In this document: positions 9,026 through 9,913 of the stretch, one piece after another
How the letters are laid out: every line of letters starts with the position of its first letter
Numbering within the stretch: position 1 is the first letter of the stretch
Virus record (IMG/VR): IMGVR_UViG_3300048925_000677
Span: 53,569 to 117,568 of that record
Reading direction: 5' to 3' (one strand)
DNA length: 64,000 nucleotides
Source: a virus
Lineage: Duplodnaviria; Heunggongvirae; Uroviricota; Caudoviricetes
Notes under the pieces: model-generated
Database searches by the model: none
What the model was told of the DNA's origin: nothing
The model's input: the letters and a program-made list of their open reading frames with translations, nothing else
Made by a program: the position numbers and the translations under genes

Positions 9026-9913
9026 ATGCGAAGTGTATGGAATGGAAGCATCAGCTTCGGACTGGTCAACGTCCAGGTGAAGCTGATGGCCGCGACCGAA
9101 GATCACGACATGGTGTCGCACCTGGCGCACGTCAATTGCGGTGGCGCCATCGGGTACGTGCCCACCTGCAAGGAATGCAACGGCGTCGTCCCCAAGGGGA
9201 ACCAGGCCAAGCGCTACGAGGTCGACGGGCATTCGGTCATCGTGACCGCCGACGAGCTGGCCAGCATCGCCAGCGAGAAGGATCGGACCATCGAGGTGGT
9301 GGAGTTCGTGCCGGCCGAAGATATCGACCCGGTGATGGTGGACAAGTCCTATTACCTGTGCCCCGACAAGTCGGTGAAGGCGTACAAGCTTCTCGCAACC
9401 GTGCTCAAGGACTCCGGCCGCGTGGCCATCGTTCAGGTGACACTGCGGAGCAAAACGCGACTTGCGGCGCTCAGTGTGACGGGCAAACAAAACGTCATGG
9501 TGCTGCACACGCTGCGGTGGCCCGACGAGATTCGGGAACCGCACTTCGACGACCTGGACAAGGACGTGCAACTGTCCGACGCCGAGGTCAAGGTGGCTGG
9601 CGAGATTGTCGGGTCGATGCACAAGGAATTCAACGCCGACCGCTACAAAGACACCTACCGCGAGGAACTGCGCGAACTGGTGATGTCCAAGACGGCCCAC
9701 GATGTACCCGAAAGCTCCGACGAGGTGGGTGACCTCCTAGCGAAGCTGGAGGCGTCCGCGCGGGCTCGCCAGTGCCATCCGGTGCGGCAGGCTCCGAAGA
9801 TGGCTGAGATTCGCGCGTGGGCCCGGAAGAACGGGCATCCACAGTTGGGCGACCGCGGGCGCATCCCCGCCGATATCGTGGAGCAGTACCAGCGAGAGGT
9901 GGTGCCGGCATGA
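9026..9913 (+). CDS. ku: Ku-like DNA end-binding protein with Lsr2-like C-terminal DNA-binding tail
   Basis: aagggagg RBS then ATG 9026. N-terminal MRSVWNGSISFGLVNVQVKL.. Ku core. C-terminus IRAWARKNGHPQLGDRGRIPADIVEQYQ matches the Lsr2 C-terminal RGR-IPADV motif. Confidence 0.75.
   Translation: MRSVWNGSISFGLVNVQVKLMAATEDHDMVSHLAHVNCGGAIGYVPTCKECNGVVPKGNQAKRYEVDGHSVIVTADELASIASEKDRTIEVVEFVPAEDIDPVMVDKSYYLCPDKSVKAYKLLATVLKDSGRVAIVQVTLRSKTRLAALSVTGKQNVMVLHTLRWPDEIREPHFDDLDKDVQLSDAEVKVAGEIVGSMHKEFNADRYKDTYREELRELVMSKTAHDVPESSDEVGDLLAKLEASARARQCHPVRQAPKMAEIRAWARKNGHPQLGDRGRIPADIVEQYQREVVPA

Follow-up and report, generated by a model that had tools for sequence, protein, structure and literature searches.

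A phage-encoded Ku with an Lsr2-type DNA-binding tail in a divergent, probably Omega-like mycobacteriophage

The stretch of DNA analyzed here, hereafter the window, comprises 64,000 nt of a Caudoviricetes genome (IMG/VR record IMGVR_UViG_3300048925_000677, positions 53,569 to 117,568). It contains a gene, named ku-lsr2 in this study, whose product joins the core of the DNA end-binding protein Ku to the DNA-binding domain that Lsr2 carries at its C-terminus. Five small genes and a gene for an FtsK/SpoIIIE-like ATPase follow it, and promoter-like motifs, a palindrome and a stem-loop lie upstream (Table 1). It is above all the extended C-terminus that varies between bacterial Ku proteins, and the role of this part in threading control, bridging and LigD contact is debated (PMC4889933, PMC9638933). 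In this respect, Omega-like phages are a natural experiment, in which the unstructured basic tail has been swapped for a folded binder of AT-rich minor grooves. The fusion also joins two topics of mycobacteriophage research, namely the use of host non-homologous end joining (NHEJ) and the need for host Lsr2 during infection. Such a fusion is already known; what is added here is the exact site of the swap, its rarity and restriction to one phage clade, the conservation of the DNA-contact residues and the linkage to ftsK. The value of the present analysis is therefore confirmation and comparative detail and not discovery, and the job of the tail has already been posed as a question in the literature.

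Table 1. Features of the ku-lsr2 locus and its surroundings (positions are those of the window; aa, amino acids; ORF, open reading frame; AF2, AlphaFold2; pLDDT, predicted local distance difference test).
Feature	Position	Strand	Basis or remark
Promoter-like motif copies	2849-2877, 3969-3997, 6899-6927, 8615-8643	+	Small-gene block; 2849 copy with one mismatch
Promoter-like motif nearest to ku (TTGACA, 17 nt, TAGAGT)	8615-8643	+	410 nt upstream of ku
Near-perfect 23-bp palindrome CTGTTCGGGAA-G-TTCCCGAACAG (CTGTTCGGGAAGTTCCCGAACAG)	8649-8671	.	11-bp complementary arms, one central base
Strong stem-loop, 13-bp, GC-rich	8783-8812	+	-32.9 kcal/mol, z -4.7
Ribosome-binding site AAGGGAGG	9011-9018	+	7 nt 5' of ATG 9026, read from sequence
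ku-lsr2 fusion gene	9026-9913	+	295 aa plus stop; ORF, Pfam, TIGR02772, PHROG 4873
Ku beta-barrel/ring core	9053-9592	+	Residues 10-189; PF02735, AF2 pLDDT mostly >90, Foldseek
Conserved "minimal C-terminus" SDEVGDLLAKLEASARA	9716-9766	+	Residues 231-247; Ku alignment
Short flexible linker	9767-9793	+	Residues 248-256; AF2 pLDDT <50 at 248-255
Lsr2-type DNA-binding domain (helix, RGR loop, helix)	9794-9892	+	Residues 257-289; PF23359, PDB alignment, AF2
RGR AT-hook-like motif	9854-9862	+	Residues 277-279
Five small genes between ku and ftsK	9910-11060	+	Logan contig gene calls, ORF list
FtsK/SpoIIIE-like ATPase, 434 aa	11057-12361	+	PF01580 E 2.8e-59; PF17854 FtsK_alpha E 2.8e-22

The reading frame of ku-lsr2 could also be opened by a GTG at 8981. 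This longer start is unlikely, because the ribosome-binding site is properly spaced for the ATG at 9026 and all Ku N-termini in the homologue alignment begin at MRS.W.G, that is, from the Met of that ATG. The N-terminal motif WNGSISFGLVNVQVKL forms residues 5–20.

The first part of the protein is a bacterial Ku. The Pfam Ku family scores 145.3 bits (cut-off 25; E 2.6e-42), and the NCBIfam equivalog model Ku_bact (TIGR02772) covers residues 2–244 with 244.8 bits (cut-off 150; E 9e-73). The phage family PHROG 4873 ("Ku-like DNA end binding") is matched end to end, residues 1–291 of 295 aligning with profile positions 1–297 of 299. Among the PDB sequences searched with phmmer, Mycobacterium tuberculosis Ku (8V53, 9I91) matches residues 1–249 with E 4.5e-74. 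Over this part, cellular mycobacterial Ku (M. tuberculosis Rv0937c; 8V53, 9I91, 9IG8) is 50–55% identical to the window protein. The predicted structure leads to the same family: the best Foldseek matches of the AF2 model are 9I91 and 8V53 (E 1e-22, 52–53% identity), so that the modeled fold matches that of M. tuberculosis Ku. H35, C48, and C51 are invariant in the core, and the DLLAKLEAS block of the minimal C-terminus (within …VSDLLAKLEAS…) is kept in every phage and cellular Ku aligned. In bacterial Ku, the minimal C-terminus has been assigned to LigD interaction and to the stimulation of ligation (PMC4889933, PMC9638933). It is required for the interaction with LigD, while the basic extension that follows controls threading and bridging (PMC4889933); in M. 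tuberculosis Ku, bridging is promoted by the extended C-terminus, which also takes part in LigD contact (PMC9638933). By analogy, the window protein would form a homodimeric ring, bind DNA ends and stimulate LigD.

An end-binding protein could also serve a phage mainly in another way than by ligation. In this case, the window protein would shield DNA ends from host nucleases (AdnAB/RecBCD) in the manner of Mu Gam, and the Lsr2 tail would only lengthen its residence. Ku and Mu Gam are homologous end-binders, as is generally known and also stated in a preprint, and none of the 20 large window ORFs scanned resembles a gene for DNA ligase D. However, the minimal C-terminus assigned to LigD interaction has hardly changed, the identity is to Ku of mycobacterial NHEJ, the score comes from an equivalog model of bacterial Ku, and the Omega homologue works with host LigD according to work cited in PMC8612146 and PMC12848934. 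We therefore consider end protection as the main purpose to be quite unlikely. A Gam-type protein as such was rejected, since the Mu Gam family profile gave no match; in the Pfam scan at E<=1, Ku and Lsr2_DNA-bd were the sole families matched.

The tail of the protein, its last ~35 residues, is of the Lsr2 type. Pfam Lsr2_DNA-bd (PF23359) is matched with E 4.2e-12 and 45.7 bits (gathering cut-off 26.9). The C-terminal domains of M. tuberculosis Lsr2 in the PDB (6QKP, 6QKQ, 2KNG) align at residues 257–290 in phmmer searches with the whole protein (E ~2e-5) and with the tail by itself (E ~2e-6), and Lsr2-like PHROG families match the tail as well. A first-pass annotation, made from the letters alone, had called both a Ku core and an Lsr2-type tail at this locus, and both calls are borne out by these searches. 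Its description of the tail alignment as "almost residue-for-residue" was too generous: 16 of 28 residues are identical to M. tuberculosis Lsr2 with one 1-residue gap (17 of 29 by local alignment), which is good but less than claimed.

The C-terminal domain of Lsr2 is a helix-loop-helix with RGR in the loop. Its two arginines enter the AT-rich minor groove, R84 lies on the phosphates, mutation of the RGR or of R84 abolishes binding, and the 2-amino group of guanine excludes the RGR loop (PMC8476142). The window tail has both the RGR and the counterpart of R84. Across 17 aligned fusion tails, R263 (equivalent to Lsr2 R84), W265, A266, G270, and R277-G278-R279 are invariant. The AF2 model, built from 45 homologues (mean pLDDT 82.7), predicts a helix at 257–268, a loop bearing the RGR and a helix at 282–292 with pLDDT of about 87–92. 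Low-confidence linkers were found at residues 228–234 and 248–255, and the rest is a confident Ku fold. The isoelectric point of the tail is 10.3 vs. 5.3 for the core plus the minimal C-terminus, which agrees with the description of extended Ku C-termini as basic (PMC4889933). No N-terminal dimerization/oligomerization domain of Lsr2 was matched in Pfam at E<=1, the N-terminal 250 residues being Ku. Judged from its domains, the window protein bears an Lsr2 domain yet is no Lsr2 protein; unlike in Lsr2, any dimerization would come from the Ku ring.

The fusion tails share the consensus (Q)C-KP-IRxWAxxxG…RGRIPxDIVDxY past the DLLAKLEAS block in the Ku alignment. Most fusions have a conserved Cys 2–4 residues ahead of the Lsr2 domain (…QC-KP-IRxWA…). 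In the window protein, Cys250 (9770–9778) lies in the linker, 11 residues ahead of the conserved IR motif (I262-R263), and cellular Ku tails are without such a Cys.

The site of the swap can be placed exactly. The Lsr2 domain starts a few residues past the DLLAKLEAS block, at the point where cellular Ku and Ku gp87 of phage Corndog carry Lys/Ala-rich tails of the PAKKA type. On this alignment, it occupies the slot of the "extended C-terminus" of Ku, which in cellular mycobacterial Ku is a PAKKA-repeat extension with no folded domain. Among the best 80 cellular mycobacterial Ku loci, out of at least 600 stretches listed from GTDB species-representative genomes, all 80 have a PAKKA-type Lys/Ala-rich tail and none has RGRIP; rare cellular or prophage copies of Ku-Lsr2 may occur beyond these 80. 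In a second set, the 150 nearest representatives of 50%-identity clusters (P0121-P0270, drawn from 1.84 billion proteins), the Ku domain is present in every member and Lsr2_DNA-bd in only one (P0121). The full Lsr2 tail is also limited to 2 of 10 confirmed viral Ku loci in IMG/VR. A generic actinobacterial Ku extension, which the first-pass annotation had named as the finding that would speak against it, is therefore not what the tail is, because it is absent from the 80 cellular loci, occurs in one of the 150 representatives and has specific homology to Lsr2. The same annotation had singled out the tail as the unusual part of the protein. It is indeed rare in these sets; however, it has already been published for cluster J phages (PMC8612146) and is found in Omega gp206.

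Other tails among the 150 nearest representatives are histone-H1-like (HC2) in six and Rho_N (HeH-type) in three. These proteins are built like the window protein, with a small DNA-binding module joined to the Ku core by a flexible linker, although the modules are unrelated. The same design is found in eukaryotic Ku70 with its C-terminal SAP domain. Judging from these architectures, small DNA-binding modules seem repeatedly to occupy the extended C-terminus of bacterial Ku, and among the SAP, Rho_N, HC2, and Lsr2 modules only Lsr2 is expected to prefer AT-rich minor grooves.

Two trivial explanations of the fusion were considered. Chance likeness of the tail to Lsr2 was ruled out by a Pfam score 19 bits over the curated cut-off. 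An assembly or frameshift artifact was ruled out by at least 20 independent sequences of the same architecture with 46–62% identity, from isolates (Omega, WXIN, Pound) and metagenomes, and is also countered by the window itself, whose Ku-Lsr2 protein was called identically on two independently assembled contigs, from JGI (123 kb) and Logan (65.9 kb). The probability left to either explanation is negligible.

Relatives of the protein are found in phages. A megablast search with positions 8000–13000 of the window gave no match among 50,697 phage records, and 88 phage records match the window Ku by protein. Full-length matches come from Omegavirus/cluster J, with 55.7% identity in WXIN, 52% in Pound, and 50% in Omega, while Corndog-type Ku (cluster O) aligns over residues 1–244 only, with 34% identity. 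Pfam detects both Ku and Lsr2_DNA-bd in Omega gp206 and in the Ku of WXIN, whereas Corndog gp87 has only the Ku match. The gene content of the window also resembles that of Omega, with Omega-like cargo made up of PNKP, RNA ligase, nicotinate/nicotinamide phosphoribosyltransferase (NAPRTase), an RlaP-type nucleotidyltransferase, a Thg1-like enzyme, and a MazZ-like pyrophosphohydrolase. The window probably comes from a divergent Omega-like (cluster-J-like) mycobacteriophage. One fusion member at NCBI sits on a 268-kb contig, and one IMG/VR match (L092), whose taxon identifier is of the isolate style, may be a prophage.

Omega gp206 and the window protein align end to end and their Ku cores fall in one clade, but the protein identity with Omega and WXIN is only 50% and 56%, and no nucleotide similarity was found among deposited phages. 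The linker of the window protein is slightly longer than that of Omega, and its tail (WARKNGH) is nearer to M. tuberculosis Lsr2 than the tail of Omega (WAKAQGF). Corndog gp87 shares with the window protein the conserved minimal C-terminus of a phage Ku. In contrast, it has a short basic tail (APAKKATARRKKTA), no Lsr2 domain, and a separate branch in the tree. The comparison with Omega and Corndog that the first-pass annotation had proposed thus separates the two phages: the first has the same tail and the second does not.

In a neighbor-joining tree of Ku cores, the fusions and one tail-less Ku (P0011) form one group (bootstrap 45–58%), and in the same weakly supported tree this group is sister to cellular mycobacterial Ku and apart from Corndog. 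A host ku captured once, a single fusion and a tail lost from time to time would fit this topology, and a single Ku-Lsr2 fusion event is likely on these grounds. P0011 is the Ku of Mycolicibacterium sp. BK634 (L088 8001–8840). It nests within the clade of the fusions but has a short basic tail (…RPRKMAASKPRRQRVSA) in place of the Lsr2 domain, lies in a prophage-like array of tiny genes, and may represent secondary loss or replacement of the Lsr2 tail.

The Ku-Lsr2 fusion of cluster J phages has been described by Sharma et al. (2021; PMC8612146), who noted that the contribution of the Lsr2 part was uninvestigated. In the literature searched, this is the sole paper that uses the term "Ku-Lsr2". 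It names Corndog beside Omega as a cluster J fusion, a listing that the Corndog sequence does not support: gp87 (L002 3001–3855) gave no match to Lsr2_DNA-bd at E<=1, and the record belongs to Corndogvirus, not Omegavirus. The paper also reports a separate full-length lsr2 in cluster J phages. In the window, a six-frame motif search over 64 kb of the 123-kb contig detected only the Ku tail.

The evidence above points to the Ku of a divergent Omega-like phage that combines an NHEJ core and LigD-linked end joining with an Lsr2 tail in place of the basic extension, and we regard this reading as fairly probable. The Ku ring would load onto the ends of the linear phage genome, and the core together with the minimal C-terminus would recruit and stimulate host LigD, so that the ends are joined and the genome is circularized. 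Omega and Corndog circularize their genomes at cos by means of host LigD (Pitcher et al., 2006, as cited in PMC8612146 and PMC12848934). LigD-dependent circularization is proposed for the window Ku by analogy, because it has been demonstrated for Omega gp206, which is 50% identical. The two Lsr2 domains of the dimer would add end-independent minor-groove contacts on AT-rich DNA. In this way, they could take over the tasks with which the basic extension is credited in cellular Ku, namely to concentrate Ku on DNA near the ends, to limit inward threading and to promote bridging. Unlike the basic extension, the Lsr2 domains should favor AT-rich tracts, because the RGR loop is excluded by the 2-amino group of guanine.

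Several points weigh against this reading. Since Corndog gp87 functions with no more than a simple basic tail, phage end joining as such can do without the Lsr2 domain. A lone Lsr2 DNA-binding domain binds DNA weakly without the N-terminal oligomerization domain. The window is without the phage genome ends, and in Omega only the left end is AT-rich. The left end of Omega (L089 1–200) has 49–58% GC and five AATT sites (TTTTTATTAATAAATTGG…GGAATTTGGCGGAAATTAC), whereas the last 200 bp of the right end (L090 1301–1500) have 61–67% GC and zero AATT; the density of AATT in the window, which is not Omega's own genome, is ~1.4 per kb. At the left end, the Lsr2 tail could find an AT-rich site to dock on, or the element may be no more than a promoter or terminase site; that the tail would target AT-rich genome ends is only a lead, taken from the ends of one genome.

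The gene downstream of ku offers another context. The FtsK/SpoIIIE-like ATPase had been called at the same position by the first-pass annotation and is confirmed by Pfam. The number of genes ahead of it, however, had been given as two, which is the number in Omega; the window has five, at 9910–10137, 10134–10385, 10382–10558, 10558–10764, and 10716–11060, encoding 75, 83, 58, 68, and 114 aa, none of which has a Pfam match. Within ~2 kb of ku-lsr2, an FtsK/SpoIIIE-like gene lies downstream in the window, Omega, and two metagenomic or viral relatives (L085, L087) and upstream in WXIN and a third such relative (L092). All Ku-Lsr2 loci whose context was examined lie within arrays of tiny phage-type genes. 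The fusion, its contact residues and the linkage to ftsK are kept at ~50% identity to Omega gp206, which suggests that the tail is under selection and is not an accident of one cluster.

Such linkage could mean that Ku-Lsr2 and the ATPase act as one module, which could, for instance, hold the phage chromosome in place or set its orientation when it is translocated, segregated or, once circularized, resolved. The persistence of the pair in either gene order fits this idea, as does the absence of an FtsK-like neighbor at the tail-less phage Ku loci (Corndog, P0011). However, a single phage lineage supplies all the linked cases, and the synteny may have been inherited; a number of unrelated small genes intervene between ku and ftsK, the FtsK-like protein has only 434 aa, and nothing points to a Ku-FtsK interaction. 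A joint module is thus improbable in our view. The PADLOC scan gave no defense-system relation for Ku. The FtsK-like protein matched only the C-terminal ATPase part of SspH (E 7e-56) and mad8, and also HerA models; most likely, these matches merely reflect the shared FtsK/HerA ATPase fold.

Upstream of ku, a sigma-70-like motif, TTGACAACTAC(G/C)G…TAGA(G/C)T with a 17-nt spacer (extended form GTTGACAACTAC(G/C)G), has four plus-strand sites vs. 0.35 expected. The copies at 2849 and 8615 lie inside AT-rich troughs below 45% GC, at 2821–2920 and 8561–8700, the latter with 42% GC. The palindrome starts 6 nt past the -10 element of the 8615 copy, with a single mismatch on the reverse strand. It is unique in the window (0 expected), its fold has -16.8 kcal/mol with z -4.6, and in appearance it suggests an operator or, alternatively, a 5' RNA hairpin. 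The strong stem-loop between this motif and ku was not flagged in the scan for T-tract terminators, having no T-tract; it may act as a terminator or attenuator and so set ku apart from the motif upstream. A small ORF of 29 aa (8687–8776) and a possible one of 52 aa also lie in this interval. The first-pass annotation had ku driven by conserved early promoters. The conserved motif does exist, the driving of ku from the 8615 copy is plausible, with the small ORF and the hairpin in between, and the block containing ku would be early by presumption.

The coincidence of AT-rich troughs with conserved promoter motifs, including the trough upstream of ku, allows the tail to be seen in relation to host Lsr2. 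It might act mainly against or alongside this protein, either by competing for AT-rich phage DNA (counter-silencing) or by placing Ku in Lsr2-organized replication zones, and end joining would then be secondary. Host Lsr2 is needed for productive mycobacteriophage infection and for the zones of phage DNA replication, according to a paper that cites Dulberger (2023). The tail consists of the DNA-binding domain of Lsr2 without the N-terminal domain, and the separate full-length lsr2 of cluster J phages (PMC8612146) indicates that Lsr2 biology matters to the lineage. On the other hand, the strong conservation of the Ku core and of the LigD-interacting minimal C-terminus in the fusion clade speaks for end-binding as the selected activity, the DNA-binding domain has no known role in Lsr2-Lsr2 contacts, and the 64-kb window, part of a 123-kb contig, yielded no second lsr2. 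A main role toward host Lsr2 is accordingly judged unlikely. Within the reading of an end-joining Ku, a tentative extension is that the Lsr2 domain confers selectivity for base composition: Ku would be parked on AT-rich phage tracts (the genome end, early promoters), host Lsr2 would be displaced, or both, and phage DNA would be captured for LigD joining in preference to GC-rich host DNA.

Further genes of the window lie outside the ku locus. Two minus-strand genes (19808–20686 and 23034–24506) encode a protein with a MazZ-like dATP/dGTP diphosphohydrolase N-terminal domain and a NAPRTase of NAD salvage, respectively. The window ORFs that were scanned include no PurZ-like gene, and there is thus no sign of a modified (2-aminoadenine) genome, in which binding of Lsr2 to the minor groove would be blocked. 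A search for tRNA genes in the window gave none. An RNA-repair-like set extends over ~17 kb, all on the minus strand (25569–26876, 36413–37279, 40898–41830, and 42162–43070), and consists of an RNA ligase (PF09414), an RlaP nucleotidyltransferase, a PNKP, and a Thg1-like 3'-5' tRNA-His guanylyltransferase-family protein.

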